Below are positions 2,197-54,237 of a stretch of DNA of 64,000 bases, in pieces; position 1 is the stretch's first letter; every line of letters starts with the position of its first letter. A program made the translations under genes and the position numbers. The DNA is from Verrucomicrobiota bacterium (GTDB lineage: Bacteria; Verrucomicrobiota; Kiritimatiellia; CAIQIC01), in the NCBI GenBank assembly GCA_004321905.1, contig SCQF01000046.1, positions 25,614-89,613 on the forward strand, read 5' to 3'. A model generated the notes under the pieces. It was not told the DNA's origin. It did no database searches and worked only from the letters and a program-made list of their open reading frames with translations.

Positions 2197-3090
2197 TCAT
2201 AGCCCCGCTTCCGGTGACGACGATCCCAATTGCACGGGCACACTATGTTCCAACGAACAATCAATCACGCTTGCGGTTTGCCGCCGTTCCGCCAAGGCTT
2301 TTTTCGTGCTCGCCAGTTTACGCAGATGATCTTCCATTCGCGTACGGGCCAGCAAGACTTGCTCACCGCTAGCCAAACGCAGATCAAGATGTTCCGGATG
2401 CGCCACATTGATGGCGTTGATGCGCACTTGCGGCCCCATATGCAACGTTTCACATAAATCCAAAACATTCAGGGCATCCTGAATTTTCGTGTCCGTGATT
2501 TGCAGACCCGGGCGCAAACCGTGCACCAGTCCGCCGAGAATGACGGGTAAACGAGCCACGGCGGCCCGCGGGACCAGCACATGGCCTTCTCGATCCACTG
2601 GTAAACTCATTTTATCGGTGACCAACACGGCCACCGCCACGCGTTCGCCGACCCGCAGCACCAACGTATCCGGCAACTGTCGTCGAATTTCAACCGAGCG
2701 CACTACCGGCAACGTTAGCAGGTCGGCGTGAATTTTACGCAGGTTGACGGCAAAAAGATTCACGCCCGGCTGAAGGTTATACTGCTCCCGCAACTCCTGG
2801 GGCTTCAGTGTGCCGTCGGTGCGAATATCCAAATTACGGATGGCAAACAGCGGGTTGGAGGCAAACAATTGTTCACGCACCCAGTCCGCGCCCATCACCC
2901 CCACCCACCCGCAACCCGCCACGGCCACAACCAAGACCGCCACGGCGCTGATCCATTTGACGCGCGCTTGTTTTTGCTCCTGCGCACGCGCATTGACCTG
3001 CAAAATCTGTTCACCGTTCGTCTTTTTGCGGCGGTTTGATCGCCGCAATGATTTTTCCGCATTCTCTCGAAACCACATGCTCATCTCCAA
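2197..3090 (-). CDS. ftsQ: Cell division protein FtsQ (POTRA domain, single TM)
   Basis: 297 aa with an N-terminal TM helix and a POTRA-like segment. Sits in the ddl-ftsQ-ftsA-ftsZ order. Confidence 0.75.
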   Translation of the reverse strand: MEMSMWFRENAEKSLRRSNRRKKTNGEQILQVNARAQEQKQARVKWISAVAVLVVAVAGCGWVGVMGADWVREQLFASNPLFAIRNLDIRTDGTLKPQELREQYNLQPGVNLFAVNLRKIHADLLTLPVVRSVEIRRQLPDTLVLRVGERVAVAVLVTDKMSLPVDREGHVLVPRAAVARLPVILGGLVHGLRPGLQITDTKIQDALNVLDLCETLHMGPQVRINAINVAHPEHLDLRLASGEQVLLARTRMEDHLRKLASTKKALAERRQTASVIDCSLEHSVPVQLGSSSPEAGL

Positions 3091-3098
3091 ATTTTTTT

Positions 3099-3989
3099 TC
3101 AGTGTACCGTGGCTCCCTGCATGATGCGATCACAAAGCGCCGCGAAACCCAAGCCCGCGGCGGCGGCGGCCTTGGGCAACAGACTGGTCTCCGTGAAACC
3201 GGGGATCGTGTTCATTTCCAACACAAAAAGTTGATCGTCCGGTGTCAGCCGCAGATCCACACGCCCCAGATCGCGGCAATCGAGCGCGTGAAACACGCGC
3301 CGTGCCAAATCCTGACACCGCGCCGCCTGCTCCGCCGTCAGCGGCGCGGGCACCAGATATTCTGTGCGGCCGGTCGTGTATTTTGCGCCATAGTCATACC
3401 AACCGTCTGGCGCACGAATTTCCACCACCGGCAACACGTCCTCGCCCAACAGTCCGACGGTCAACTCGCGACCCGAAATATAGCGCTCGACAAGCACCGC
3501 GCCGTGTTGCAGCGCATCAGCCAACGCCGCCGTCCAATCGCTTTCCGCACGCACGCAATGCAGCCCAATGCTCGACCCCTGGCAGGCCGGCTTGACCACC
3601 ACGGGCAACGGCAAGCGATGCGCTGCCGGCGCCGATAACACTTCATATTCGGGCGTCGGAATCGAAGCCTCGCCGAATACACGCTTGCTCAGCAACTTAT
3701 CAAACGCTTTCCGGCTCGCCGCGGCACCGGAACCAGTGTACGGCATATTCAGTGCGCACAATTTATCCTGCACGACTCCATCTTCGCCATACGCGCCGTG
3801 CAAGGCCAAAAATACCGCTTCGACATCCGCGGCGAATTTCAATTCGCCATCCTGCGGATCCACTTCCTCCACGGCATACCCCGCCTCGCGCAAGCCGCGC
3901 GCCACCGCCGCGCCGGAGCGCAATGACACCGCGCGTTCCGCCGATGGCCCGCCCATCAAAACCGCAACTTTCTTAAACTTTTTCCCCAT
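3099..3989 (-). CDS. ddl: D-alanine--D-alanine ligase
   Basis: MGKKFKKVAVLMGGPSAERAVSLRSG... ATP-grasp; classic Ddl N-terminus; dcw context. Confidence 0.9.
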   Translation of the reverse strand: MGKKFKKVAVLMGGPSAERAVSLRSGAAVARGLREAGYAVEEVDPQDGELKFAADVEAVFLALHGAYGEDGVVQDKLCALNMPYTGSGAAASRKAFDKLLSKRVFGEASIPTPEYEVLSAPAAHRLPLPVVVKPACQGSSIGLHCVRAESDWTAALADALQHGAVLVERYISGRELTVGLLGEDVLPVVEIRAPDGWYDYGAKYTTGRTEYLVPAPLTAEQAARCQDLARRVFHALDCRDLGRVDLRLTPDDQLFVLEMNTIPGFTETSLLPKAAAAAGLGFAALCDRIMQGATVH

Positions 3990-15831: not shown

Positions 15832-15908
15832 GTGCCTGTAGCTCAACTGGATAGAGCGTTGGCCTCCGAAGCCAAAGGTTGTGGGTTCAACTCCCGCCAG
15901 GCACACCA
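15832..15908 (+). tRNA. tRNA-Arg (anticodon CCG)
   Basis: Hand-folded: acceptor GUGCCUG/CAGGCAC, D-arm GCUC...GAGC, anticodon stem UUGGC/GCCAA, loop CUCCGAA, T-arm GUGGG-UUCAACU-CCCGC, encoded CCA. 77 nt. Confidence 0.88.
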
Positions 15909-15922
15909 AACGAGCATACGTT

Positions 15923-16177
15923 GTGTACTTTGTCTATATCCTCCAGAGTTTACGCACGAACTGTTTTTACATCGGTACGACCGACGATTTAGTACGCCGT
16001 TTTCATCAGCACCAAACCGGTCGCAGCACCTATACCTGCAAATGCGGTCCGTGGTGGATGACCTACTACGAAATCCACGCCGATCGTTCATCCGCCCTCC
16101 ACCGCGAGCGCGAAATCAAACACTGGAAAAGTTCTACGCGCATCCAACGTTTAATCGCGGAATCGTTTCCGCCATGA
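15923..16177 (+). CDS. Small GIY-YIG nuclease-family protein (YhbQ/UPF0213-like)
   Basis: VYFVYILQS...CFYIGTTDDLVRRFHQHQTG contains the GIY-X10-YIG motif and the conserved R and H/N residues of small GIY-YIG proteins. Probable GTG start at 15923, 15 nt after the tRNA. Confidence 0.7.
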   Translation: MYFVYILQSLRTNCFYIGTTDDLVRRFHQHQTGRSTYTCKCGPWWMTYYEIHADRSSALHREREIKHWKSSTRIQRLIAESFPP

Positions 16178-16204
16178 CAGAGCGCCCCGGCTACCGTAGC
16201 CGGG

Positions 16205-16239
16205 AAGGTTGTGGGTTCAACTCCCGCCAGGCACACCAA
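16205..16239 (+). repeat. Duplicated 3' portion of tRNA-Arg (variable loop to discriminator, 35/35 identical); no 5' half
   Basis: aaggttgtgggttcaactcccgccaggcacaccaa repeated. The upstream ccggctaccgtagccgg resembles a diverged anticodon arm. No matching 5' acceptor strand was found. Confidence 0.85.
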
Positions 16240-16240
16240 G

Positions 16241-16291
16241 TTTTCCAAGGCTTGGAAAATTGAAACGACGCTTTTTCCAAACCTTGGAAAA
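16241..16291. repeat. Paired palindromic dispersed element
   Basis: gttttccaaggcttggaaaa-N12-tttttccaaaccttggaaaag. Confidence 0.9.
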
Positions 16292-16321: not shown

Positions 16322-19300
16322 ATGACTGGCCGCCGCTCCGAATCCGTGCTCGTGGTTCATCCCACGTCGCTTGCGCTCCGGCAACTCCAACGCCGCACGC
16401 TGACGCACGTAGGTTTCTTCGACGCGCGCGGTCACATCACCTTCGCCGGTTTGCTCAATAGCTGTGCCGAAGCTGCGCGGCAGGCCGGTTTGCTGGCGGG
16501 CCGAAGGTCGGCCTCGGATTTGGACTATGAAATGCTGCTACTGGAGACCGCCCAGCAGTTCCGTGCAAAATCCGCCGCCCAGCAAGGCCCGCTGGCCGCC
16601 CTCGCACAGCAAGCTTTGGAAGACACGCTTGACCAACTGATCGCCTTCCTCGCGCCGCTGGCCGATCGCATCGCCGATGCTCTCGCGATACTGGCGCGCG
16701 GCACACCCAAGAACCGCGCGCTCGCTACGCTCTATCAGGAGTTTCAAGCCGCTGCTAACGCGATGGACGTGAGCACAGAGGCCGATGAAAACGCAGCCAT
16801 TCTGCGCTTGTTGCGCGGTGACTGCACTGCGTGGCCCGCCGTCTTGCACGAAGCCACCGCCGTGCGCTTCGTCGCCGTACGTGCCATCACGCCGATGCTG
16901 GAAAGCGTCAGCCACGCGCTGGTCGGGAAACCAGGTGGCACACAGGTACAGATCGAGCATATTTTGGAAGAACACGAGCAGGAATGGTGGGGTGAAAAAT
17001 TCCTGGCGGGTTCCTGTCGGCTTTTGTTCGGAACGGAAAGCGCCGCCGAGGATGCCGCCTGCCATGCGGCGCAGACATGGAGCGTAGTCACCAGCCTACG
17101 CGAAGCCTACGCAATGCGCGATCCCGGCCTCGCCGCCGAAGCGCGCACGAACGTCGGCTTCTCCTGTTCCGCTGGTCTCTATGGTGAAGTGGAAGACCTC
17201 GCGCGCCGAATTTGCTGGGAATTGGAGCAACCGGACGCTCATCTGCGACCCGAAGAGATCGCGCTCGTCGTGCCCAACGTGGGCCAATATGCCGATGCCA
17301 TCGCTGACGTTTTCCAGCGCTTCCAGTTGCCCTATCACTTCCGCCGCGGCAATGCCGTGCTCGCCGCGCCGGTGACACAGGCGATTCTGCGCCTGCTGGA
17401 AGTTCGCGCCACGCGCAGTCGCGACGCTTTTTGTGCGTTGCTCGAAAGTCCGTGGCTGAAGTGGGAAAGAATACAGGAGACAGAATACAGAAGTCAGAAG
17501 CCAGAGGTCACTGAACAGCTATCCGCTATCCGCTATCCGCCATCTGCCCTCGCCGATTCCATCCGCCGCGCCGGGATTGAACCAGAAATGCCGGAGGCCG
17601 CGGTGCTCGCACTGCGTGTCCGTAATTTCCTCCTCGCTAAACGCCCGCCAGCAACGGACGCCCAAGCTATCGGCGATTTTGCGGCGCAAGTGTTTCGGCT
17701 GCTTTACGACAAAAACTCGGAACGTCGCCCACTCACCAAACTATGCAACCAACTGATCTCAGAACTTCGTCAAACGTTTGGCGTAGAAGGCCAAGTCCGG
17801 CAGTTTCTACAAAATAGTTTCGCGTCCGATGACCTCACGCGCCAAGCCGCGTTGTTCAATAGCCGCGCCTTGACCGCCGTCATCGCGCAACTGGAAACCC
17901 TCGGCAAACATAAGGCCGAGACCACAATGACGTGGGCCGAGCTGCTCGCGCTCTTGCGGCGCGTGTTGCGTAACGTGACGGTTGCCGCCGGCAGCGCCGA
18001 CGAGTCCGGCGTCTGGGTTCTCAATCCGCACGACGCGGCGGGCCTACATTTCCGCGTCACGCTCATCGCCGGGCTGAACGCCGGACGCTTCCCCGCCCTA
18101 CCCGCGCCCAGTCCGGTGTTTAGCGACGCCGAATTGCGGCAGTTGCGCGAGGCGTTGACCGCTTTACCGCAAACCGCGCTGGCACCGTCCGTGGCGCGGC
18201 GCAGCCAAGATAATCTGCTGTTTTTGACCACGCTGGCGACGGCGAGCGAACGGCTGGTGTTTTCCTATCAAAGCCGCGACGAAACAGGCGAAGAATTGCA
18301 ACCTTCAATCTGCTTTGCCACCGCATGGCGGCTCGCCGGCTGGCCAAGTTGGGAGAAGTTACCGTCGCAACCGCCTGATCCCTATGATCGCTGGCGCCTG
18401 AAGGTCGCGCCGGAAATTTTCCGCGAATTCTGGGAAGCCGCGCGAAACGGCAAGGACCTGCCCATCTGGCAACGTAAACCCTTTCACGGCGAATCGTTCC
18501 TCGCCACCCGCCCGCTGGCGCTCTGCCGTGCGGCGGATGAAGCGCGCCAACAAGCCGCACGTTCCCTTGCGGAGTGTAGGAGCCCGGCCCCTGCCGGGCG
18601 ACCTGCCGATGCCGTCAGCGAACTCGTCGCCCGCAGCCTGACGATGGAGGCGGAGCGCACCCGCATCTTCACGCAGCAGGCTTTGCAGCCAAACCAGCCG
18701 CCAGAACACGGCACGCGGTTCGTCGGTTCCATCACAGCCCAGACCTGGCAACAGGTACGCCCCAAACCGCGAACCATTCCGGATTTCAGCGCCACGGAAT
18801 TGGAGACGCTGGCGACCTGTCCCTATAAATACTATCTGCAACGTGTGCTCCACCTCGAAGCGCTCAAAACCAACGAACAGGAAGCTACGCCGCTCGCGCT
18901 CGGTAGTCTGGTGCACCGCGTGATGCACCATGCGCTGCTACTCCTGCGCGGTGATCCACCGCCGCCAGATGCCCCAGCCGTACTGGCCGACATCCGCCAC
19001 GGCTTCGCCGATCTATGCCGTCCGGCGTTTGCAGTGCAAACCACCGACCACCCGTGGCGCATTATGGTCAAGGGGCCCGGTCGTCCGGTGGTGCAATTCC
19101 AGCCGGATAAGACCGAGCATTACGCTGAATTTATGGCGGCGGTGGCCAACGCCGAACTCGAAGCCGAGGAACAAGCGCTGGCTAGCATGATGCTCGGCGC
19201 CATCGAGCAACGCGGCGTCGTACGAACCAACTTGATCGCCGGTTGCAACAATCTGCTCCGCTTGAGCCTGCAACCCGCCGAATTCGATAAATCCATGCTG

Positions 19301-19912
19301 CCGCCGTTGCGCCGCTATCCCGCACTACTGGAATTCGCCTTCGGTTCCGGCCAAGGTTGCGAGAAGTCCGCCGTGACGTTCGTCCATCCCGATGATCCCG
19401 TCAGCCGCTTGCGCGTCCACGGCAAGTTGGATCGCGTGGACTTGCTGGCCGATGACGACGGCGTCATCCGCGCGATGACGGTTGTGGACTACAAGGGCGT
19501 GAGCAAGAGCGGACTCCAAGCGGAAGAGCTGGCCGCAGAAATCATCGCCGCCCGTAATTGCCAATTGCCGGTCTATGGCCTCGTTGCACAGGCGACCTTC
19601 GGCGATGACCTCCCGTTGCTCTTGCAATATCTGCCGTATCGCGGCGACTTCAGCGAAATCCTCAAGCAAACGCCAAAGCGCTGGATCGCGCTCACCGGCG
19701 AACCGGTGGACTCCACCACGCTCGCCGAATTGATCGGCACACCGCAAACGCCCCTGATGGCGGCTTTCGCGCGGCGTATTTTCCAATGCTTGGAAATTCT
19801 TGAGCACGGTGATTTCCGTGCCGCGCCGCAAGCATGCGAACACTGTGAATTCCGCGGCTGCTGCCGTTACACCGCACCGGCGCTGGAAGGCGAAACAGAA
19901 GAAGGAGCGTAG
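16322..19912 (+). CDS. addB: AddB-like helicase-nuclease subunit (inactive-helicase-like N-terminal region, C-terminal PD-(D/E)XK nuclease with Fe-S cysteines)
   Basis: 1196 aa upstream of a UvrD-type helicase-nuclease. Nuclease motifs: ATCPYKYYLQ, DYKGVSK, and the terminal Cys cluster CEHCEFRGCC (CxxCx4C). No Walker A found. Contains the in-frame heptamer array at 17461-17530. Confidence 0.72.
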   Translation: MTGRRSESVLVVHPTSLALRQLQRRTLTHVGFFDARGHITFAGLLNSCAEAARQAGLLAGRRSASDLDYEMLLLETAQQFRAKSAAQQGPLAALAQQALEDTLDQLIAFLAPLADRIADALAILARGTPKNRALATLYQEFQAAANAMDVSTEADENAAILRLLRGDCTAWPAVLHEATAVRFVAVRAITPMLESVSHALVGKPGGTQVQIEHILEEHEQEWWGEKFLAGSCRLLFGTESAAEDAACHAAQTWSVVTSLREAYAMRDPGLAAEARTNVGFSCSAGLYGEVEDLARRICWELEQPDAHLRPEEIALVVPNVGQYADAIADVFQRFQLPYHFRRGNAVLAAPVTQAILRLLEVRATRSRDAFCALLESPWLKWERIQETEYRSQKPEVTEQLSAIRYPPSALADSIRRAGIEPEMPEAAVLALRVRNFLLAKRPPATDAQAIGDFAAQVFRLLYDKNSERRPLTKLCNQLISELRQTFGVEGQVRQFLQNSFASDDLTRQAALFNSRALTAVIAQLETLGKHKAETTMTWAELLALLRRVLRNVTVAAGSADESGVWVLNPHDAAGLHFRVTLIAGLNAGRFPALPAPSPVFSDAELRQLREALTALPQTALAPSVARRSQDNLLFLTTLATASERLVFSYQSRDETGEELQPSICFATAWRLAGWPSWEKLPSQPPDPYDRWRLKVAPEIFREFWEAARNGKDLPIWQRKPFHGESFLATRPLALCRAADEARQQAARSLAECRSPAPAGRPADAVSELVARSLTMEAERTRIFTQQALQPNQPPEHGTRFVGSITAQTWQQVRPKPRTIPDFSATELETLATCPYKYYLQRVLHLEALKTNEQEATPLALGSLVHRVMHHALLLLRGDPPPPDAPAVLADIRHGFADLCRPAFAVQTTDHPWRIMVKGPGRPVVQFQPDKTEHYAEFMAAVANAELEAEEQALASMMLGAIEQRGVVRTNLIAGCNNLLRLSLQPAEFDKSMLPPLRRYPALLEFAFGSGQGCEKSAVTFVHPDDPVSRLRVHGKLDRVDLLADDDGVIRAMTVVDYKGVSKSGLQAEELAAEIIAARNCQLPVYGLVAQATFGDDLPLLLQYLPYRGDFSEILKQTPKRWIALTGEPVDSTTLAELIGTPQTPLMAAFARRIFQCLEILEHGDFRAAPQACEHCEFRGCCRYTAPALEGETEEGA
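17461..17530 (+). repeat. Heptamer tandem-repeat array ((NNNNCAG)x6 followed by (CTATCCG)x3), in-frame inside addB
   Basis: gaataCAGgagaCAGaataCAGaagtCAGaagcCAGaggtCAc...ctatccgctatccgctatccg; related to the arrays flanking the four-helix-bundle gene at 31243-31690. Confidence 0.8.
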
Positions 19913-19924
19913 GGGGAATGGTGC

Positions 19925-19995
19925 TGATCCCTAATAGATTTTTGGTAGGGCGCTCGCGCCGCGAGCGCCGCGGACGGCGCGGCGCGCCGTCCCTA
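19925..19995 (+). other. GC-rich multi-hairpin element in the addB-addA intergenic region
   Basis: ggtagggcgctcgcgccgcgagcgccgcggacggcgcggcgcgccgtccctacc: an outer GGTAGGG/CCCTACC stem enclosing two internal hairpins; no T-tract follows. Confidence 0.5.
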
Positions 19996-20017
19996 CCTAT
20001 GGCAAGAATGCTTTGAA

Positions 20018-23000
20018 ATGAGCGTAACCTTCAAAATCCAATTCAGCGCTTCCGCCGGCACGGGCAAGACCTATCAGGTGACGCAGCTCTATCTCGCCCT
20101 TGTGCTGGGCCACCCCTATCCCAAGGAAGCCGGCGAACTGATCGGAATCGCACCCGGCACGATTCATCCCGGCGGAGAACCGCTGCCATGCGAAAAGATT
20201 CTGATGCTGACCTTCTCGCGTAATGCCGCCGCCGAGTTACGGCAGCGCATCACCGCGGGCATCGAAGAGGCGCGCGCTGACGCGGAAGCCAAGCACAACG
20301 ATGAAATCGCTGCGCGCTGCTGGAATTTGCTGCATCGCCTGCCCGCCGCCGACATCTCCACCATCCACGCCTACGCGCAGCGCCTGGTGGAACAGCACGC
20401 CCTGCGGCTCGGCCTCTCGCCCGCCTTCAGCATCCTCGATGAGGACGCGGCCTCCGATTTACGTCAGGAAATTTTCGAGGCCGCATTGCACGACGCACTG
20501 GAAAACGGCAACGATGCCGACCACGCCACACGGGAGGCGCTCTGTGCCGGGCGCGGCGCAAGCGAAGTTCTCGGCGCGCTGCAAGCGTTACTGCAAAACA
20601 CACGCAGTCTTGGTCTGCGGCTGGAAAACATGGACCTTGCGGGACTGGTCGAGCAGCCCGCGCCGCCAACGCTCGAACGATTGCGCCAGTTACGGACGCA
20701 ACTCGCCACCGCCAACGGCCAGAACAAGCGCGGCAAAGCGCCACAAATTTTAGCTGACTTGGATGGCTTGCTTGCCACTGCGACCATGAATGCCGATATG
20801 GTTGCGCTAGCCGCCCATGTCGCGGAACTGGCCGAAGGACAATGGGGAAAAGATAATCCCGCGCTTTCCGCGACACGCGACGCGTTGCAGCACTTCGGGG
20901 CCTATGCCGAGCACCGCCGCGCCGCCGATGCGCTCCCGCCCTTGCTCCACCTCGTAAAAAGCGCGGCGCAGCGTTACGAAAACGCCAAGCGCGAACGCGC
21001 CGGGCTGGACTTCGACGATCTCCTGCTGCTCGCGCGCGACCTCGTGATGCACCACGCCGAGGCGCTGCCGCCCATCACCGCGATCATCGTGGACGAGGCG
21101 CAGGACAACTCGGCACTGCAAAACGAATTTATCCGCGGACTCCAAGCCGCACGCTCTGCCGCGCTCGCGCTCTGCGGCGATTGGAAGCAGACCATCTACG
21201 CTTGGCGTAACGCCGATCCCCAAGGTTTGGAACGACTCGCCAAGGAAACCAAATTACGCGGCGTACCATTGCGTCAGAGCTTCCGTAGTCAGCAGGGCGT
21301 GCTCGACTGGATCAACGACTTCTGTCGTGGCGTACTCTTTGACGAGGCCTACCGCGCTGACGACGAATTGCTGCCCTGTCCACGCGCACTGGCCACCGAA
21401 CCACCCAACATCGAGCTGCTCCTGCCGGAATGGGAACTGCAACCCGACCCGTTCGAGCCCGTTGGTAGAAAAATGCGGCTGGAACTCTCACCCACCGACT
21501 TGAAGCGGCTGGCCAAAGAAGAAAGTTTTCAAGGTTCGGAAAAACCAGCGAACGGAGTTTCCAAGAATTGGAAAACTGTGCTCGCACAGTCGGAACAAGC
21601 AATCGCGCTGGAAGCACGCGCCCTTGCCCGACGTATCGAACTTCTCACCGCTGGTCCGGCTTCCAGCGCGGCGGTTTCCAAGGTTTGGAAAAATGGTAGC
21701 TGGAGCCAACCGGAGTCGCCGCCGTACCGCCGCCGCGACATTCTGATTTTGCTCAAAGCCACCAGCCGGCAGGAAATTTATGAAGCCGCGCTACGCGAAC
21801 GCGGCATTCCGTACACGACCGACGGTAAAGGGCGCGGCTTCCTGACGCGGCAGGAAGTACAGGACATCGCCAGCCTGCTCTCATGGCTGGCGTTCCGAGA
21901 TGACCTCGTCGCGCTGCTCGCGGTCGCACGCTCGCCGTTCTGCGCGCTTTCCGATGAAGTGCTGGCCGTACTCGCGCAGGGCAGCAACGCCACAAACTTG
22001 GCCATCGCGCTGACCGGCGTGGATACCACCGCCGCGACGGCGCGACTCGCCGAATTGGGCTTGGCTGCGGAAGCGCCGACGTTTGCGCACGCGGTGGAAT
22101 TCTTCCGCCGGATGCGGCTGCTGGCCGGGCGACTCCCACCCGTGGAACTGGTGCGCGAAGCCATCCGGCTGACCGGCTTCGATGCCACACTCGCCGGCTC
22201 GTTCCACGGCGCGCAGCGGCTCGCCAACCTCAAAAAATTGCTCTCGTGGATTGAGACGCACGAACGCAGCGAAGGCCTCGACCTCGCGGGCGTCGCACGC
22301 TGGCTGACCACCGAAATTGAAAATGGCGAGGATCGGCCCGATGCGCCCGTACTCGATCCGCAGGACGACGCCGTACGCATCAACACCGTCCACGCCGCCA
22401 AGGGCCTGACCAGTCCGGTGGTTTGTTTGCCGGACCTGCGGCGTATCCCGGCCCCGGATCAGCAATGGCTTCTGCCCCACCCGACCGCCACGGGCTTGAC
22501 CATTGCGGCCAAGCTGAAAACACGCCAGCCGGACTTGCCCGACGCGCCGGAATGGAATACCAGCGATTTCGAGAATGCCAAGGACGCGGTCAAAACCTCG
22601 CGCACCGCCGAAGACCAGCGGCTCTTTTATGTGGCCGCGACGCGTCCGCGCGATCTGTTGGTATTCTCGGGCGAGAATGCGCATCGCACTGCGACGTGGC
22701 GCGGCGCGCTCAACCACTATCTGCTCGCCGACTCCGAACGCGCGCTGCGCCTGATGACATTGCGCGATTACCGCCAGTTGGAAGAGGAATGGCGCGCGGC
22801 GGGACTGGCCGCACCACGCACCGTACCTGCCGGCGAGATCAGCGCGACGCAACTGGCCGAGCAAACCGCCCTGCCCGAGCGCCCGCCACACCCGGAACTC
22901 TACCGCTATTCGGCCACGCTGCTTGCCAGCGTGCCGACGACCGATGACCCCGCCGCGCTACGGGAATTTATCGAGGAAGATTTGGCTGGGTTGCAAACGC

Positions 23001-23659
23001 CGCACTCCACGCGCCGCGCCGCCGCCACAGAGGATAGCCGCGCGGAGCGTATCACTACCGGCGTACGCGCCCATGCCGCGCTACGCGCCGCGCCGCTCCA
23101 AGACAGTCAACCCGCCACACCGAAGACGGCCACAGCCAGCGCCTTGGCGTGGCTGCGGAAAAACTGCGGCGACCTGCCGCCCGCTCACGTACTGCGCGAA
23201 CTGCCGTTCGTCGCCCGCTTTTCGCACGATGGCGCGGTGGCGCTGGTGGATGGCGCGGCGGATTTGGTTTTCTGGCGCAACGGCGCGTGGCACATCGTGG
23301 ACTATAAATTCACCGAGCAAACACCGGACGAATTGCGGCAGCGCTACGCCTTGCAACTGGCAATCTATGCCGCCGCGCTCTTCACGCCCGATGGGCTGCC
23401 GCGTTTTGCCCACACAACGAATAGCGGCGCCCTCGGAGAGGCCGCTCTACCGAAAAAAGGTAGGGTGCGTTCTCCGAACGCGCCGTCTTTGAAATTGAGC
23501 TTGCTGCGTTGCAGCCGCGATTTCCAATGTTTGGAAATTCCGTTTGCTGATTTTCCAAGCCTTGGGAAAACCGCCGCCGCCGTCATTGCCACCGCCCGCA
23601 TCCTGCGTAAGTTCCAACCAAGTGGAATCAGCACCGATTTTTCAGCCCGGCGGGATTAG
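20018..23659 (+). CDS. addA: AddA/RecB-type ATP-dependent helicase-nuclease (UvrD-like helicase plus C-terminal PD-(D/E)XK nuclease)
   Basis: Walker A (SASAGTGKTY), UvrD helicase motifs, C-terminal nuclease (IVDYKFTEQ...YALQLAIYAAAL). Palindromic-element units are inserted in-frame at 21527-21576 and 21674-21693 (SFQGSEKPANGVSKNWKT, AVSKVWKNG). The C-terminal tail is read through the element at 23521-23570. Confidence 0.85.
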   Translation: MSVTFKIQFSASAGTGKTYQVTQLYLALVLGHPYPKEAGELIGIAPGTIHPGGEPLPCEKILMLTFSRNAAAELRQRITAGIEEARADAEAKHNDEIAARCWNLLHRLPAADISTIHAYAQRLVEQHALRLGLSPAFSILDEDAASDLRQEIFEAALHDALENGNDADHATREALCAGRGASEVLGALQALLQNTRSLGLRLENMDLAGLVEQPAPPTLERLRQLRTQLATANGQNKRGKAPQILADLDGLLATATMNADMVALAAHVAELAEGQWGKDNPALSATRDALQHFGAYAEHRRAADALPPLLHLVKSAAQRYENAKRERAGLDFDDLLLLARDLVMHHAEALPPITAIIVDEAQDNSALQNEFIRGLQAARSAALALCGDWKQTIYAWRNADPQGLERLAKETKLRGVPLRQSFRSQQGVLDWINDFCRGVLFDEAYRADDELLPCPRALATEPPNIELLLPEWELQPDPFEPVGRKMRLELSPTDLKRLAKEESFQGSEKPANGVSKNWKTVLAQSEQAIALEARALARRIELLTAGPASSAAVSKVWKNGSWSQPESPPYRRRDILILLKATSRQEIYEAALRERGIPYTTDGKGRGFLTRQEVQDIASLLSWLAFRDDLVALLAVARSPFCALSDEVLAVLAQGSNATNLAIALTGVDTTAATARLAELGLAAEAPTFAHAVEFFRRMRLLAGRLPPVELVREAIRLTGFDATLAGSFHGAQRLANLKKLLSWIETHERSEGLDLAGVARWLTTEIENGEDRPDAPVLDPQDDAVRINTVHAAKGLTSPVVCLPDLRRIPAPDQQWLLPHPTATGLTIAAKLKTRQPDLPDAPEWNTSDFENAKDAVKTSRTAEDQRLFYVAATRPRDLLVFSGENAHRTATWRGALNHYLLADSERALRLMTLRDYRQLEEEWRAAGLAAPRTVPAGEISATQLAEQTALPERPPHPELYRYSATLLASVPTTDDPAALREFIEEDLAGLQTPHSTRRAAATEDSRAERITTGVRAHAALRAAPLQDSQPATPKTATASALAWLRKNCGDLPPAHVLRELPFVARFSHDGAVALVDGAADLVFWRNGAWHIVDYKFTEQTPDELRQRYALQLAIYAAALFTPDGLPRFAHTTNSGALGEAALPKKGRVRSPNAPSLKLSLLRCSRDFQCLEIPFADFPSLGKTAAAVIATARILRKFQPSGISTDFSARRD
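21527..21576. repeat. Paired palindromic dispersed element (degenerate), in-frame inside addA
   Basis: ttttcaaggttcggaaaaa-N11-gtttccaagaattggaaaac. Confidence 0.8.
21674..21693. repeat. Single palindromic unit, in-frame inside addA
   Basis: gtttccaaggtttggaaaaa. Confidence 0.8.
23521..23570. repeat. Paired palindromic dispersed element at the addA 3' end
   Basis: tttccaatgtttggaaa-N13-ttttccaagccttgggaaaa. Confidence 0.85.
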
Positions 23660-53141: not shown

Positions 53142-53218
<77 letters not shown>

Positions 53219-53222
53219 ATTC

Positions 53223-53256
53223 CAAGCCCGGTGGAAATTCCACCGGGCTTTTTTAT
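53223..53256 (+). terminator. Rho-independent terminator after the tRNA (AAGCCCGGTGGAA-A-TTCCACCGGGCTT followed by a T-run)
   Basis: Perfect 13-bp stem followed by TTTTTT; an identical copy lies at 53601-53634. Confidence 0.7.
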
Positions 53257-53533
53257 GGCGGCACCACATCCATATTGGGTCTATGTGCTCTGGTCGACAA
53301 CCGGTGAATGTTTTTATGTCGGCGTTACAGATGATCTCGATCGGCGGCTCGCGCAACACAACGACGGCAGCTCACAATGGACCCGCCGTTATGCCGGTTC
53401 ATGGGCATTGGTTTGGCAAAAATCATTCGACACCTTGGGCGTTGCACGCGCACATGAGAACCTGCTCAAGCGACAACGCGGCGGACACGGATTCTTCCAG
53501 CATACCGGTCTTGACCCAGCCATTTATCAATGA
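53255..53533 (+). CDS. Small GIY-YIG nuclease-family protein (YhbQ/UPF0213-like), second copy
   Basis: MAAPHPYWVYVLWSTTGECFYVGVTDDLDRRLAQHNDG...: GIY-YIG motif followed by R-X-H-N. Begins inside the duplicated terminator region. Confidence 0.75.
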   Translation: MAAPHPYWVYVLWSTTGECFYVGVTDDLDRRLAQHNDGSSQWTRRYAGSWALVWQKSFDTLGVARAHENLLKRQRGGHGFFQHTGLDPAIYQ

Positions 53534-53542
53534 CGCTCAACC

Positions 53543-53639
53543 GGCTCATAATCCCGCCGTGGCGGGATCATTGGTTCAAATCCAATCCCTGCTACCAATT
53601 CCAAGCCCGGTGGAAATTCCACCGGGCTTTTTTATGGCG
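53543..53639 (+). repeat. Partial diverged copy of the tRNA(CAU) 3' half plus terminator
   Basis: ggctcataa-tcccgccgtggcggga-tcattggttcaaatccaatccctgctacca followed by the identical terminator hairpin; lacks the 5' acceptor and D-arm. Confidence 0.8.
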
Positions 53640-53646
53640 TGATTTC

Positions 53647-54237
53647 ATGTCCATCGAAACTAGCCTGAGAATTTTCCCGCCCGACTGGACGCAGCCGATG
53701 CCGCTGCGCGATTTCTTCGGCAACGATCAGCCGATTGAAGTTGATTTGGGTTGCGGCAAGGGTCGCTTTCTTCTCGCACACGCCACGGCGCATCCCAACG
53801 TGAATTTTTTCGGCGTAGACCGGATGCTGCGCCGCATCCGCAAGGTGGACAACAAAGCGCGCCGACAGGCTCTGAGCAACATCCGCCTGATGCGCATGGA
53901 AGCCTACTACGCCACTACCTATTTACTACCGCCGGCCAGCATCGCCACCTACTATATTTTTTTTCCTGACCCGTGGCCGAAGAAACGACACCACGAACAC
54001 CGGCTGTTCAATTCACGCTTCATGGATGCGCTGCACCGCACGCTCACGCCCGGCGGCGGCGTACACTTCGCCACCGACCATCTACCCTACTTCGCGGAAG
54101 TCTGCGCGTTGATTCGCGCCGACCGCCGTTTTGCCGAAATTCCGCCGTTCGTGCCCGAACCCGAAGAGCAGACCGATTTCGAGCGTTATTACATTGGCCG
54201 GACGCCGATTGGCCGGTTTTCCTTTCGGAAAACATAA
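53647..54237 (+). CDS. trmB: tRNA (guanine46-N7)-methyltransferase
   Basis: IEVDLGCGKGRFL...FPDPWPKKRHHEHR are TrmB SAM-MTase motifs. Start set at MSIETS. Confidence 0.88.
   Translation: MSIETSLRIFPPDWTQPMPLRDFFGNDQPIEVDLGCGKGRFLLAHATAHPNVNFFGVDRMLRRIRKVDNKARRQALSNIRLMRMEAYYATTYLLPPASIATYYIFFPDPWPKKRHHEHRLFNSRFMDALHRTLTPGGGVHFATDHLPYFAEVCALIRADRRFAEIPPFVPEPEEQTDFERYYIGRTPIGRFSFRKT

Follow-up and report, generated by a model that had tools for sequence, protein, structure and literature searches.

When a small nuclease gene is found lodged against a tRNA gene, the obvious comparison is with the Seg endonucleases of T-even phages, and SegB of phage T4 is the closest analogue of the loci described below. 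SegB is a GIY-YIG nuclease that cuts within tRNA genes and yields tandem [tRNA + segB] repeats via microhomology between the tRNA 5' end and the segB 3' end (PMC13096335). Its cleavage motif matches the conserved T-loop box, and SegB drives preferential inheritance (PMC2330249, PMC13096335). The stand-alone GIY-YIG proteins of bacteria have been treated in phylogenomics as vertically inherited repair factors, with their tRNA-gene context unmentioned (PMC1564403). Integrase-bearing islands and prophages likewise target tRNA and tmRNA genes, leave the tRNA intact, and are bounded by a direct repeat of part of it. Finally, there are several classes of short structured palindromes in which a conserved base encloses a variable interior and which are tied to one enzyme gene or to tRNA genes, namely the REP elements with their RAYT genes, the attC sites of integrons, and the GC-rich palindromes flanking tRNA genes in fungal mitochondria. 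The enzymes of the first two are a Y1 transposase and a tyrosine recombinase, respectively, whereas the enzyme considered here is of the GIY-YIG type.

The stretch of DNA analysed (hereinafter, the window) comprises 64 kb of contig SCQF01000046.1 of a Verrucomicrobiota bacterium and contains two modules that resemble each of these systems in part. Like SegB and the rest of the Seg family (T4, T6), each has a free-standing GIY-YIG gene in a tRNA gene region, and arrays such as that at L022, like those ORFs whose ends fall within the following tRNA copy, look the same as in SegB. However, the modules are chromosomal and bacterial, whereas Seg genes reside in phages, and the module protein is a catalytic domain of 80-100 aa from the Slx1/UPF0213 branch, whereas Seg proteins belong to the I-TevI/Seg branch. 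We know of no palindrome-disabled tRNA duplicate in Seg systems. With UPF0213 (YhbQ) and Slx1, the module proteins have in common the minimal GIY-YIG core with its Tyr, Tyr, Arg, His and Glu but, in contrast to a vertically inherited UPF0213, many lineages here are nested at tRNA genes, patchily distributed and multi-copy. Unlike integrase islands, the modules encode no integrase, whether a tyrosine or a serine recombinase, their insert holds a single ORF and is only about 300 nt, their duplications are 5' or 3', variable in length (35 and 72 nt) and inclusive of flank rather than built on a fixed att core, and the duplicate bears a foreign palindrome. Unlike the palindromes of the REP/RAYT, attC and mitochondrial kind, those of the modules occur only in the tRNA copies next to the ORF, with no dispersal through the genome. 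No published description of a tRNA-nested GIY-YIG module was found in the literature, and the data point to selfish DNA living on tRNA genes, of a kind that seems not to have been described before.

Two nuclease genes nested at tRNA genes

The first module consists of the following features:

15832-15908, + strand: functional tRNA-Arg(CCG), CCA encoded (ARAGORN; Rfam tRNA model, 71 bits; conserved serC synteny)
15909-15922, + strand: 14-nt spacer between tRNA and ORF, without a promoter-like match
15923-16177, + strand: GIY-YIG ORF 1, intact, 84 aa, GTG start (Pfam PF01541, E=5.7e-16)
16178-16184, + strand: CAGAGCG, remnant of the D-stem 3' strand of a disabled tRNA copy (compare ATAGAGCG of the tRNA; alignment)
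16185-16205, no strand: perfect GC-rich palindrome C-CCCGGCTAC-C-GTAGCCGGG-A of the (T)CCCG...CGGG(A) class, in the place of the anticodon arm
16205-16239, + strand: exact 35-nt copy of tRNA-Arg, from the variable loop to the CCA and 1 nt beyond (repeat search, blastn)

The second module, at 53142-53639, comprises:

53142-53218, + strand: functional initiator-type tRNA-Met(CAT) (ARAGORN; initiator call by eye, based on the 1:72 mismatch and on likeness to the tRNA-fMet of E. coli)
53224-53254, + strand: intrinsic terminator of the tRNA-Met, with a second copy at 53603-53633
53255-53533, + strand: GIY-YIG ORF 2, 92 aa (PF01541, E=1.4e-14)
53535-53551, + strand: diverged D-stem, anticodon-stem 5' strand and anticodon loop of a disabled tRNA-Met (GCTCAACCGGCTCATAA)
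53552-53567, no strand: palindrome TCCCGCC-GT-GGCGGGA in place of the anticodon-stem 3' strand and variable loop
53568-53639, + strand: tRNA-Met copy (T arm, acceptor 3' strand, CCA, terminator, ATGGCG), 72 nt, 71/72 identical

The first-pass annotation of this DNA had claimed a complete tRNA-Arg followed by a small GIY-YIG nuclease ORF and a perfect 35-nt repeat of the tRNA end, and all three are borne out, with the ORF intact and, by its sequence, of the Slx1/UPF0213 type. A repeat search of the window recovered 15875-15909 = 16205-16239 as an exact direct repeat, for which simple arithmetic gives a chance expectation of about 1e-12 in 64 kb. This repeat ends in the encoded CCA and 1 nt, not in the discriminator plus 2 nt as described earlier, and lies 27 nt, not 30 nt, from the ORF stop. 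The copy had also been described as a partial 3' copy with no 5' half; the 3' repeat is indeed exact, but more than the 3' end is present, since the 7-nt D-stem remnant precedes the palindrome, whose core, CCCGGCTAC-C-GTAGCCGGG (16186-16204), abuts the repeat on its 5' side. The AGAGCG of the remnant is found at four other loci as well (L169, L002, L057, L009). An Rfam scan of the module 1 region detected the tRNA and no other family.

In module 2, the duplicated segment (53189-53260 = 53568-53639, one mismatch) includes the tRNA terminator. ORF 2 sits behind the terminator because the latter is itself duplicated, and the first two codons of the ORF (ATGGCG) fall within the duplicated host segment. 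The original flank, the trmB gene with its ATG at 53647, follows the copy. Both nuclease genes are intergenic, free of intron or intein, as befits free-standing homing genes. No promoter-like site was found between tRNA and ORF in either module, and the whole of module 1 is presumably driven by the tRNA-Arg(CCG) promoter. ORF 1 has a GC content of 51% against 59% for the window, and the GC3 values of ORF 1 and ORF 2 are 0.60 and 0.52, respectively, against about 0.70 in the neighbouring genes. Those neighbours are housekeeping genes: no recombinase or transposase was found within 6-8 kb of either module, and searches with the window ORFs gave no transposase family match, which, with the variable lengths of the duplications, speaks against an IS or transposon. 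The 14-nt spacer of module 1 is similar to the spacer before the ORF in its sister module, L169.

Both ORFs score above the PF01541 gathering score and thus belong to the GIY-YIG superfamily. Pfam detects the catalytic domain only, at residues 1-72 of the 84-aa protein and 7-75 of the 92-aa protein, and no separate DNA-binding domain such as the one by which I-TevI and Seg proteins read long targets; recognition of a long site is therefore unexplained. The two proteins are about 41-46% identical (tblastn, alignment). Y5, Y16, G18, R26, H30, E62 and K66 are invariant in 92 homologues; ORF 1 retains all of them, and Y5, Y16, G18, R26, H30 and E62 are present in both window proteins. The best PDB match is 1ZG2 (UPF0213 protein BH0048, E=4e-5), followed by three Slx1 chains at 0.03-0.17, and the NCBIfam search returned only a sub-threshold match to a group I intron endonuclease. 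With modest confidence, we place the ORFs by sequence in the Slx1/UPF0213 (YhbQ) branch and not with UvrC or I-TevI. The family evolves under purifying selection: pN is 0.14-0.28, pS is saturated, and dN/dS is about 0.06-0.13.

Recurrence of the modules and their disabled tRNA copies

MAGs of Verrucomicrobiota, Bacteroidota, Patescibacteria and other groups show the same architecture, namely, a working tRNA, an ORF of the MYFVYILQS type and, to one side or the other, a tRNA copy disabled by a palindrome. In the sample surveyed, which consisted of 80 genome loci with 88 full-length homologous ORFs, a tRNA or tmRNA lies on the same strand within 175 nt of 58 ORFs; a tRNA and/or a CCCG palindrome is nearby in 67, and 113 of the 123 tRNA genes in these loci share the strand of the ORF. 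These counts and the second module in the window uphold the earlier view that an integrase-less module recurs for reasons other than chance. ORFs at least 65-70% identical share the tRNA isotype, and switches appear at about 60% identity, so that each ORF lineage is faithful to one tRNA type; several diverged copies can be found at different tRNAs of one genome, and no near-identical copies at different tRNAs or in different hosts were found. At the same time, small stand-alone GIY-YIG proteins form 5,726 clusters at 50% identity (E<=1e-3), and two observations count against the tRNA-cassette reading: some lineages of the family are not located at tRNAs at all, with no known RNA gene adjoining, and a tmRNA-linked lineage has a promoter-like box of its own and no duplicate. 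Libraries of defence systems and phage families gave marginal matches only. The search for a carrier yielded no phage matches and only five matches to chromids or chromosome-like 'plasmids', none of them a true plasmid.

The downstream piece is a disabled tRNA duplicate and not an att scar. In a typical copy, a GC-rich perfect palindrome takes the place of at least one arm, most often that of the anticodon (positions 27-43), and the second tRNA copy is non-functional because of this replacement by a sequence built on (T)CCCG...CGGG(A). The duplicated pieces are arranged about the ORF in two ways that mirror each other: in other genomes, it is the 5' part of the tRNA that is duplicated, upstream of the ORF. 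Breakpoints are concentrated where one arm meets the next, around positions 26 and 44. Full-length, cloverleaf-like copies are seen in L005, L022 and L177, the stop codon of the ORF frequently falls within the 5' end of the tRNA copy that follows, and there are tandem arrays of units that have no ORF. The partial tRNA, which the first-pass annotation took for the classic footprint of site-specific integration, does not stand up as such: the repeats measure 35 nt in one module and 72 nt, with host flank, in the other, 5'-part copies occur elsewhere, and arms are replaced by palindromes. Campbell-type integration of a small circle and target duplication by a staggered cut were also considered, and both are conceivable.

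The loci with GIY-YIG genes contain 99 palindromes in 418 kb, 59 of them within 150 nt of an ORF, whereas control loci contain 12 in 374 kb. In a scan unbiased as to sequence, the count was 134 in the 31 kb close to ORFs and 462 in 387 kb of other sequence, with TCCC as the outer word in 21 and 16 cases, respectively. Palindromes occupy several different positions within the tRNA copies, sometimes two or three to a copy. Their structure is conserved: the inner pairs draw on all four pair types, and in the palindrome of L169 (CCCGGC-CGC-G-GCG-GCCGGG) two compensatory double changes separate it from that of module 1. Over 381 stem positions there are 375 Watson-Crick pairs, 6 mismatches and no G:T pair, which points to symmetry at the level of DNA. 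The module 1 palindrome matches the tRNA anticodon arm at 10 of 17 positions; its derivation from a mutated arm was rejected as a general explanation because the other tRNAs lack such similarity and have the CCCG base in common nonetheless.

The presence of the modules at orthologous sites is sporadic and accompanied by decay, as in homing genes. The gene order serC-tRNA-Arg(CCG) is kept in about 25 relatives; the module is present there in the window and in L083/L169, and is absent in the closest relatives, L100 and L082, as well as in L084 and L085, so that the relatives lacking the insert that had been called for do exist. At the tRNA-Pro/DUF167/RsmE site, the series runs from empty (L181) through a 15-codon remnant (L179) and a single module (L170) to a double one (L177). 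Frameshifted ORF copies and tandem arrays, with copies 94-100% identical, are found among the loci. The working tRNA beside the ORF is identical in sequence to the tRNAs at the empty sites of L100 and L084, and therefore no resistance polymorphism is visible. A metagenome scan based on SerC revealed many module-free serC-tRNA-Arg relatives but not the exact empty junction of module 1, which cannot be defined because the downstream flank of the relatives is not conserved; the SerC sequence of the window itself occurs on one other contig only, which breaks within the tRNA. Nor was an exact empty site obtained for module 2, the TrmB homologues of relatives not being beside tRNA-Met. The saturated synonymous divergence between orthologous modules fits long residence as well as repeated homing. 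Synonymous sites are saturated in the diverged ORF of L169, whose tRNA copy nevertheless exactly matches the tRNA of its own genome; accordingly, an exact repeat cannot date the insertion.

Persistence of the modules

We suggest, with about even confidence, that each module is a selfish, integrase-less cassette specialised for life on tRNA genes, which persists via nuclease-stimulated recombination dependent on tRNA homology. Its minimal nuclease of the Slx1/UPF0213 type (80-100 aa) is encoded on the tRNA strand, directly after or before a working tRNA, and would be expressed by read-through from the tRNA promoter, with no promoter of its own. The predicted nuclease might occasionally break tRNA-gene DNA, as T4 SegB does, recognising either sequence or a stem-loop or cruciform structure. 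Repair of the break with the conserved homology of the tRNA could then copy the ORF beside the same tRNA in chromosomes that lack it and, by the same route, duplicate tRNA segments. Gene conversion would prevent the disabled copy from diverging, in its outer portion, from the resident tRNA, and unequal recombination would generate tandem arrays and precise losses. The palindrome may either shield the spare copy from cutting and block its use as a tRNA, or serve as the structured substrate of the nuclease. The homing-endonuclease-like role proposed earlier is retained as the best explanation for the predicted nuclease. A bolder version, possible but on balance doubtful, is that nuclease and (T)CCCG...CGGG(A) palindrome together form a structure-guided selfish element of a new class that reads the stem-loops of tRNA genes as DNA structures and swaps the arms of spare copies for its own hairpin, a 'replace and cripple' drive; just as tentatively, in some cases (L177) the element would bring or retain a functional tRNA, with the resident one being disabled.

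The first-pass annotation had set against mobility a picture of tandem tRNAs around a resident ORF, the second tRNA simply decayed. Part of this picture holds, in that two or more tRNA copies flank a long-resident ORF in L169, L033, L022 and L177, but the second copy is specifically disabled and the module is patchily distributed; in a modified form, the 'mobile or selfish' reading can be kept. An alternative is a domesticated, host-beneficial enzyme, structure-specific like Slx1 and tied functionally to tRNA genes, that processes stalled forks, R-loops or cruciforms at the highly transcribed tRNA genes with which it is co-transcribed, the tRNA duplicates and palindromes being by-products of the recombination it causes. 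Such a role would account for the strong purifying selection at saturated dS, the lasting fidelity of ORF lineages to one tRNA, the lack of a phage or plasmid vehicle, the UPF0213 and Slx1 proteins as nearest solved relatives, the operon-like overlap of the L170 ORF with the start of the next gene (ATGA), and the lineages that, being tRNA-less or tmRNA-linked, resemble stable residents; yeast Slx1 itself maintains repeated rDNA, according to background cited in PMC1564403. We nevertheless consider this explanation, by-products included, unlikely: it has to contend with patchiness among close relatives, the 15-codon remnant, frameshifted copies and tandem arrays, with several diverged copies at different tRNAs of one genome and with atypical GC3, and a housekeeping role leaves unexplained why spare tRNA copies should be disabled by a conserved palindrome.

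The first-pass annotation also raised the option of a recombinase acting in trans. A small promoterless cassette could be a passenger whose palindrome, with a conserved base and variable interior that resemble the logic of attC, is recognised as a structure, as are integron attC and the folded sites of XerCD hijackers, the GIY-YIG gene being cargo or an accessory. The same ORF family in every cassette is hardly cargo-like, however, no recombinase is found near the window modules, the palindrome shifts its position within the tRNA copies and may occur two or three times in one, and the duplications vary in length and include host flank, all of which makes this passenger scheme quite improbable. 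Similarly improbable is a device acting on RNA, in which the nuclease mRNA would be processed or stabilised by means of the tRNA-like piece and the hairpin ('tRNA punctuation') and the duplication in the DNA would be incidental. The tRNA-type sequences on both sides of a promoterless ORF, the stops within the 5' end of the next copy and the cloverleaf-like copies of L005, L022 and L177 would suit it, but the majority of disabled copies, among them the two in the window, have no 5' acceptor strand and can form no RNase P substrate, the hairpin stems hold 0 G:T in 381 positions, Rfam matches are limited to tRNA, and ORF-less tandem unit arrays exist. As to a classical integrase island eroded down to one gene between attL and attR, such islands do usually show a complete tRNA whose 3' end is directly repeated further downstream, but there is no integrase at the window modules, the same content of about 300 nt is found in dozens of genomes, 5'-part duplications occur upstream, repeat length varies with flank included, and a conserved palindrome takes the place of arms; this origin is effectively refuted by the recurrence of the minimal module without integrases.

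Small stand-alone GIY-YIG proteins of the UPF0213/YhbQ type are very common and have no established role, and nesting at tRNAs offers a testable hypothesis, that of a nuclease acting on tRNA-gene DNA. Should the structure-guided element prove real, it would provide the first biological role for this large uncharacterised family. A selfish cassette on tRNA genes would bring homing-type selfish genes, familiar from phages and organelles, into the bacterial chromosomes of several phyla, including Patescibacteria, and explain a class of partial tRNA genes as well as assembly breaks at tRNA loci. An exact repeat of a tRNA end need not imply an integrase-mediated insertion or a recent event. Annotations of such loci are to be read with care: tRNA finders call some of the disabled copies tRNAs, and gene callers stretch the ORFs into tRNAs; in the NCBI record, ORF 1 is a 98-aa 'GIY-YIG nuclease family protein' with its start placed within the tRNA.

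Two modules at tRNA genes

The window holds two modules, each with a tRNA gene, a short ORF of the GIY-YIG family and a repeat of part of the tRNA (forward-strand coordinates):

15832-15908, tRNA-Arg(CCG) (ARAGORN; Rfam tRNA model, 71 bits)
15923-16177, ORF 1, GTG start, 84 codons (Pfam GIY-YIG, E=5.7e-16)
16185-16205, module 1 palindrome, C-CCCGGCTAC-C-GTAGCCGGG-A
15875-15909 and 16205-16239, exact 35-nt direct repeat
53142-53218, initiator-type tRNA-Met, with a terminator directly after it
53255-53533, ORF 2, 92 codons (Pfam GIY-YIG, E=1.4e-14)
53552-53567, module 2 palindrome, TCCCGCC-GT-GGCGGGA
53189-53260 and 53568-53639, 72-nt repeat with one mismatch (T arm, acceptor strand, terminator and six further bases)

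The spacer between tRNA-Arg(CCG) and ORF 1 is 14 nt long. The 35-nt repeat covers the tRNA from its variable loop to the encoded CCA, with one further base, and 64 kb of sequence would not be expected to hold a repeat so long by chance. The first-pass annotation had described the tRNA-Arg(CCG), the GIY-YIG ORF and the exact repeat, all of which are borne out by ARAGORN, Rfam, Pfam and a repeat search of the window. Its claim of a like architecture with another tRNA at 53142-53639 also holds, as does its view of the modules as integrase-less: neither has an integrase, a transposase or any other recombinase gene within 6-8 kb. The proteins of ORF 1 and ORF 2 are only about 41-46% identical and, hence, the two are not recent copies of each other. 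Both have a lower GC3 (0.60 and 0.52, respectively) than their neighbours (about 0.70). Amid housekeeping genes, module 1 adjoins SerC and an AddB/AddA-type helicase-nuclease pair, and module 2 adjoins a class IV aminotransferase and TrmB. The AddB-like (PD-(D/E)XK) and AddA-like (UvrD helicase plus nuclease) genes, immediately 3' of module 1 (16322-23659), correspond to a double-strand-break processing complex; their presence there is probably a coincidence.

In both modules, a perfect GC-rich palindrome abuts the 5' side of the repeat and is itself preceded by remnants of more 5' tRNA sequence, namely, CAGAGCG, left from the 3' strand of the D-stem, in module 1, and a diverged D-stem, an anticodon-stem strand and an anticodon loop in module 2. 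These features rule out a bare att-type 3' end, and the earlier reading of the partial tRNA as an integration footprint gives way to that of a disabled duplicate: because of the palindrome and the remnants, the downstream piece is a copy of the tRNA in which a foreign hairpin has taken the place of all or part of the anticodon arm, its 5' part having been overwritten by the end of the ORF.

Recurrence, arrangements and the palindrome

A homologue scan with ORF 1 as the query and one genome per species yielded 80 loci (hereafter GIY loci) in Verrucomicrobiota, Kiritimatiellae, Bacteroidota, Ignavibacteria, Fidelibacterota/Marinimicrobia, many Patescibacteria and MAGs labelled Gammaproteobacteria, the sample being biased to one branch of the family since the search patterns favoured MYFVYILQ starts. 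A same-strand tRNA or tmRNA gene starts or ends within 175 nt of 58 of the 88 full-length homologous ORFs (upstream only in 32, downstream only in 18, on both sides in 8), and for 67 of the 88 there is a tRNA, a CCCG palindrome or both in the vicinity. Within 418 kb of GIY loci, 113 of 123 tRNA/tmRNA genes share the strand of the ORF.

Two mirror arrangements occur among these loci. In arrangement A, that of the window, a working tRNA is followed after 0-50 nt by the ORF, a D-arm remnant, the palindrome and an exact copy of the 3' part of the tRNA, often with some of the host 3' flank. In arrangement B, the host 5' flank and an exact copy of the 5' part of the tRNA are followed by one or more palindromes, a decayed 3' remnant, the ORF and the working tRNA. 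The ORF often runs into the 5' end of the next tRNA, which then holds its final codons and its stop (the TAG of GTAGCTCA). In both, decay affects the ORF-proximal part of the disabled copy, and the ORF-distal part matches the resident tRNA without a difference. The breakpoints cluster at arm boundaries, 5' pieces ending at about 19-29 and 3' pieces starting at about 43-47, with a minority in the D loop, the anticodon loop, or the T arm or loop. Some copies are full-length and cloverleaf-like with one or two arms replaced (L005, L022, L177), some carry hairpins inserted in the D loop (L033, L177), and some in Patescibacteria have two or three hairpins each (L044, L070, L075). Tandem arrays of a tRNA copy plus an ORF, with ORFs 94-100% identical, are found at L022, L013, L076, L021 and L041, and the existence of ORF-less tandem arrays of hairpin-bearing units (period 69 nt in L009, 77 nt in L071) shows that disabled units amplify on their own.

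ORF-less arrays of partial tRNA units adjoin a working tRNA at L009 (2790-2995), L007 (2779-2926) and L071 (2546-2760). ARAGORN calls no intact tRNA at L005. The tRNA-Pro copy on the 3' side of the ORF there (3358-3400) ends abruptly past the anticodon loop and unrelated sequence follows; another element may have inserted at that loop. In a tmRNA lineage of Patescibacteria (L045, L063, L066, L069), the ORF lies 134-171 nt downstream of tmRNA, beyond a conserved spacer with its own TATAAT-like box and different hairpins, and no duplicated tmRNA end is seen. In a more distant relative (L138/L139), a different, more distant GIY-YIG ORF (MNTNHTVYILRS..., 1643-1888) is located about 120 nt downstream of the orthologous serC-linked tRNA-Arg(CCG), with no obvious disabled copy beside it.

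The palindrome is conserved and specific: the 418 kb of GIY loci contain 99 perfect CCCG...CGGG hairpins (59 no more than 150 nt from an ORF), compared with 12 in 374 kb of control loci chosen via SerC and TrmB. A scan for perfect palindromes of any core (stem of at least 7) gave 134 in the 31 kb flanking ORFs versus 462 in the remaining 387 kb; TCCC as the outer word occurs 21 times near ORFs versus 16 elsewhere. CCCG palindromes are confined in the window to the two modules, save for the tRNA-Met terminator and one coding-region match, and are absent from those lineages of the ORF family that are not at tRNAs. The 51 hairpins comprise 375 Watson-Crick pairs, 6 mismatches and no G:T pair, which argues for symmetry at the DNA level (a cruciform, a single-stranded DNA hairpin or a templated origin) rather than an RNA-only structure; all four pair types are used at inner stem positions, partly owing to the selection criterion.

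Conservation, patchiness and the proposed mechanism

By their divergence, the ORFs are functional genes: pN is 0.14-0.28 with synonymous sites at or near saturation, dN/dS is 0.06-0.13 where computable, and, across 92 sequences, conservation is at least 98% at Tyr5, Tyr16, Gly18, Arg26, His30, Glu62 and Lys66. Each ORF lineage keeps to one tRNA type: pairs of ORFs at least 65-70% identical adjoin the same isotype (Pro, Ser, Lys, Tyr, Asp, Phe, Leu(taa), Arg(ccg); tmRNA with tmRNA), with isotype changes appearing at about 60% identity.

The nearest homologue of ORF 1 (P0122 at locus L169, 72%) is likewise at tRNA-Arg(CCG), with a hairpin-bearing 3' copy on each side of the ORF. L169 starts with the same 78 nt with which L083 ends; L083 is a serC-tRNA-Arg contig, and its SerC shares 79% identity with that of the window. 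Relatives lacking the insert, for which the first-pass annotation had proposed to look, do exist: L100, the closest to the window by SerC (82%), and L082, the sister of L083 (87% to L083), carry tRNA-Arg without the module, so that its presence in the window and L083/L169 calls for two gains or two losses. The T stems of tRNA-Arg differ between the window and L169 (GTGGG/CCCGC versus GCTGG/CCAGT), each disabled copy matches the tRNA-Arg of its own genome exactly, and two compensatory double changes separate the palindromes. The explanation is either a continual homogenisation of each copy with the resident tRNA or the independent insertion of related cassettes; on neither account does the exact 35-nt repeat date an insertion. 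The window arrangement can be derived from that of L169 via recombination between two direct repeats of the latter.

Four states are seen in another orthologous series from Verrucomicrobia, where tRNA-Pro(tgg) precedes DUF167-RsmE. In L181, the site is empty, the promoter region is the same and the tRNA is identical; in L179, the tRNA is followed by only the first ~15 codons of the ORF; L170-L176 (nine contigs) have one ORF and disabled copies on both sides of the working tRNA; and L177/L178 have two ORFs, the copy in the original position, behind the native promoter, being disabled by two hairpins while the working tRNA lies upstream together with the other ORF. This last state hints at a possible ability of the cassette to supply or retain a tRNA of its own as the resident copy is disabled. 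In L177 (reverse strand, 2599-3617), the upstream working tRNA differs in the sequence preceding it and has a compensatory anticodon-stem change. A selfish gene would be expected to behave in this way, with gain, duplication, decay and loss at a single site.

The data show directly the anatomy of the modules, their recurrence, the selection on the ORFs, the fidelity to a tRNA type and the patchiness; the mechanism is inferred. The best, albeit unproven, explanation is one already raised by the first-pass annotation, that the GIY-YIG protein itself drives the system. Given the strong strand bias and the lack of a promoter-like site in the spacer of module 1 or after the terminator of module 2, the ORF would be expressed by read-through from the tRNA promoter. 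The nuclease would break tRNA-gene DNA, and repair via tRNA homology would copy the ORF, duplicate tRNA segments and homogenise the copies, yielding also arrays and precise losses; the palindrome would either immunise and silence the spare copy or serve as the structured substrate of the enzyme. The best precedent is SegB, a phage GIY-YIG enzyme whose cleavage site in tRNA genes is a motif that matches the T-loop box, and which gives rise to tandem [tRNA-Tyr + segB] repeats by microhomology of the tRNA 5' end with the 3' end of segB (PMC13096335). The module seems to behave like a free-standing homing endonuclease gene, with which it shares intergenic location and sporadic distribution; however, such genes usually encode a separate DNA-binding domain, whereas the protein here is, by Pfam, a bare catalytic domain that would need to recognise its DNA by structure, as Slx1 does, or through oligomers or partners. 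As the domain is bare, no resistance changes set the working tRNA apart from those of empty-site relatives, searches found no vehicle (phage or plasmid carrier), and the residence of the module looks long from sequence comparison, a host-beneficial role at tRNA genes stays a serious rival to a self-driving nuclease. Movement of the cassette by a trans-recombinase and a role in RNA processing are rivals to a lesser degree. An integrase-type island and an IS were rejected, there being no recombinase or transposase within 6-8 kb of the modules and the repeats being 35 versus 72 nt long.

The ORF protein belongs to the GIY-YIG superfamily and, by sequence, to its Slx1/UPF0213 branch. In a 2006 phylogenomic survey of that superfamily, the stand-alone Slx1-like proteins of bacteria are regarded as repair factors with vertical inheritance, with no mention of a tRNA-gene context (PMC1564403), and a search of the openly accessible full-text literature found no published description of the module. 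The window contains a true example of a widespread nuclease cassette, nested at tRNA genes and apparently undescribed, set apart from known homing-type nuclease genes by a distinct structural hallmark and broad phylogenetic reach.

Annotation, assembly and another repeat in the window

Gene callers run these ORFs upstream into the tRNA (15881-16177 in the window; P0121), the NCBI product of ORF 1 being 98 aa long; many database homologues have 20-60 extra N-terminal residues, and some entries fuse two tandem ORFs. ARAGORN reads some disabled copies as odd tRNAs ('tRNA-His(atg)' in L008, 'tRNA-Phe(aaa)' in L015). Short-read contigs with these loci (L081, 3126 nt; the short contigs of P0122-P0139) tend to end in or beside the tRNA, and the window's own SerC contig ends just ahead of the 35-nt repeat, a pattern that fits assembly being broken by the duplicated tRNA segment.

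Another palindrome, TTCCAANNNTTGGAA, occurs at 27 sites in the 64-kb window (4438-62337; none expected in shuffles), often as intergenic pairs 32 nt apart. One pair (16243-16257 and 16275-16289) lies immediately 3' of module 1 and supplies the -35-like hexamer of the sole promoter-like match before the 1196-aa gene. Similar motifs come after tRNA-Arg in the relatives L109, L127, L130 and L137, and TTCCAANNNTTGGAA is probably a lineage-wide regulatory or repeat element.
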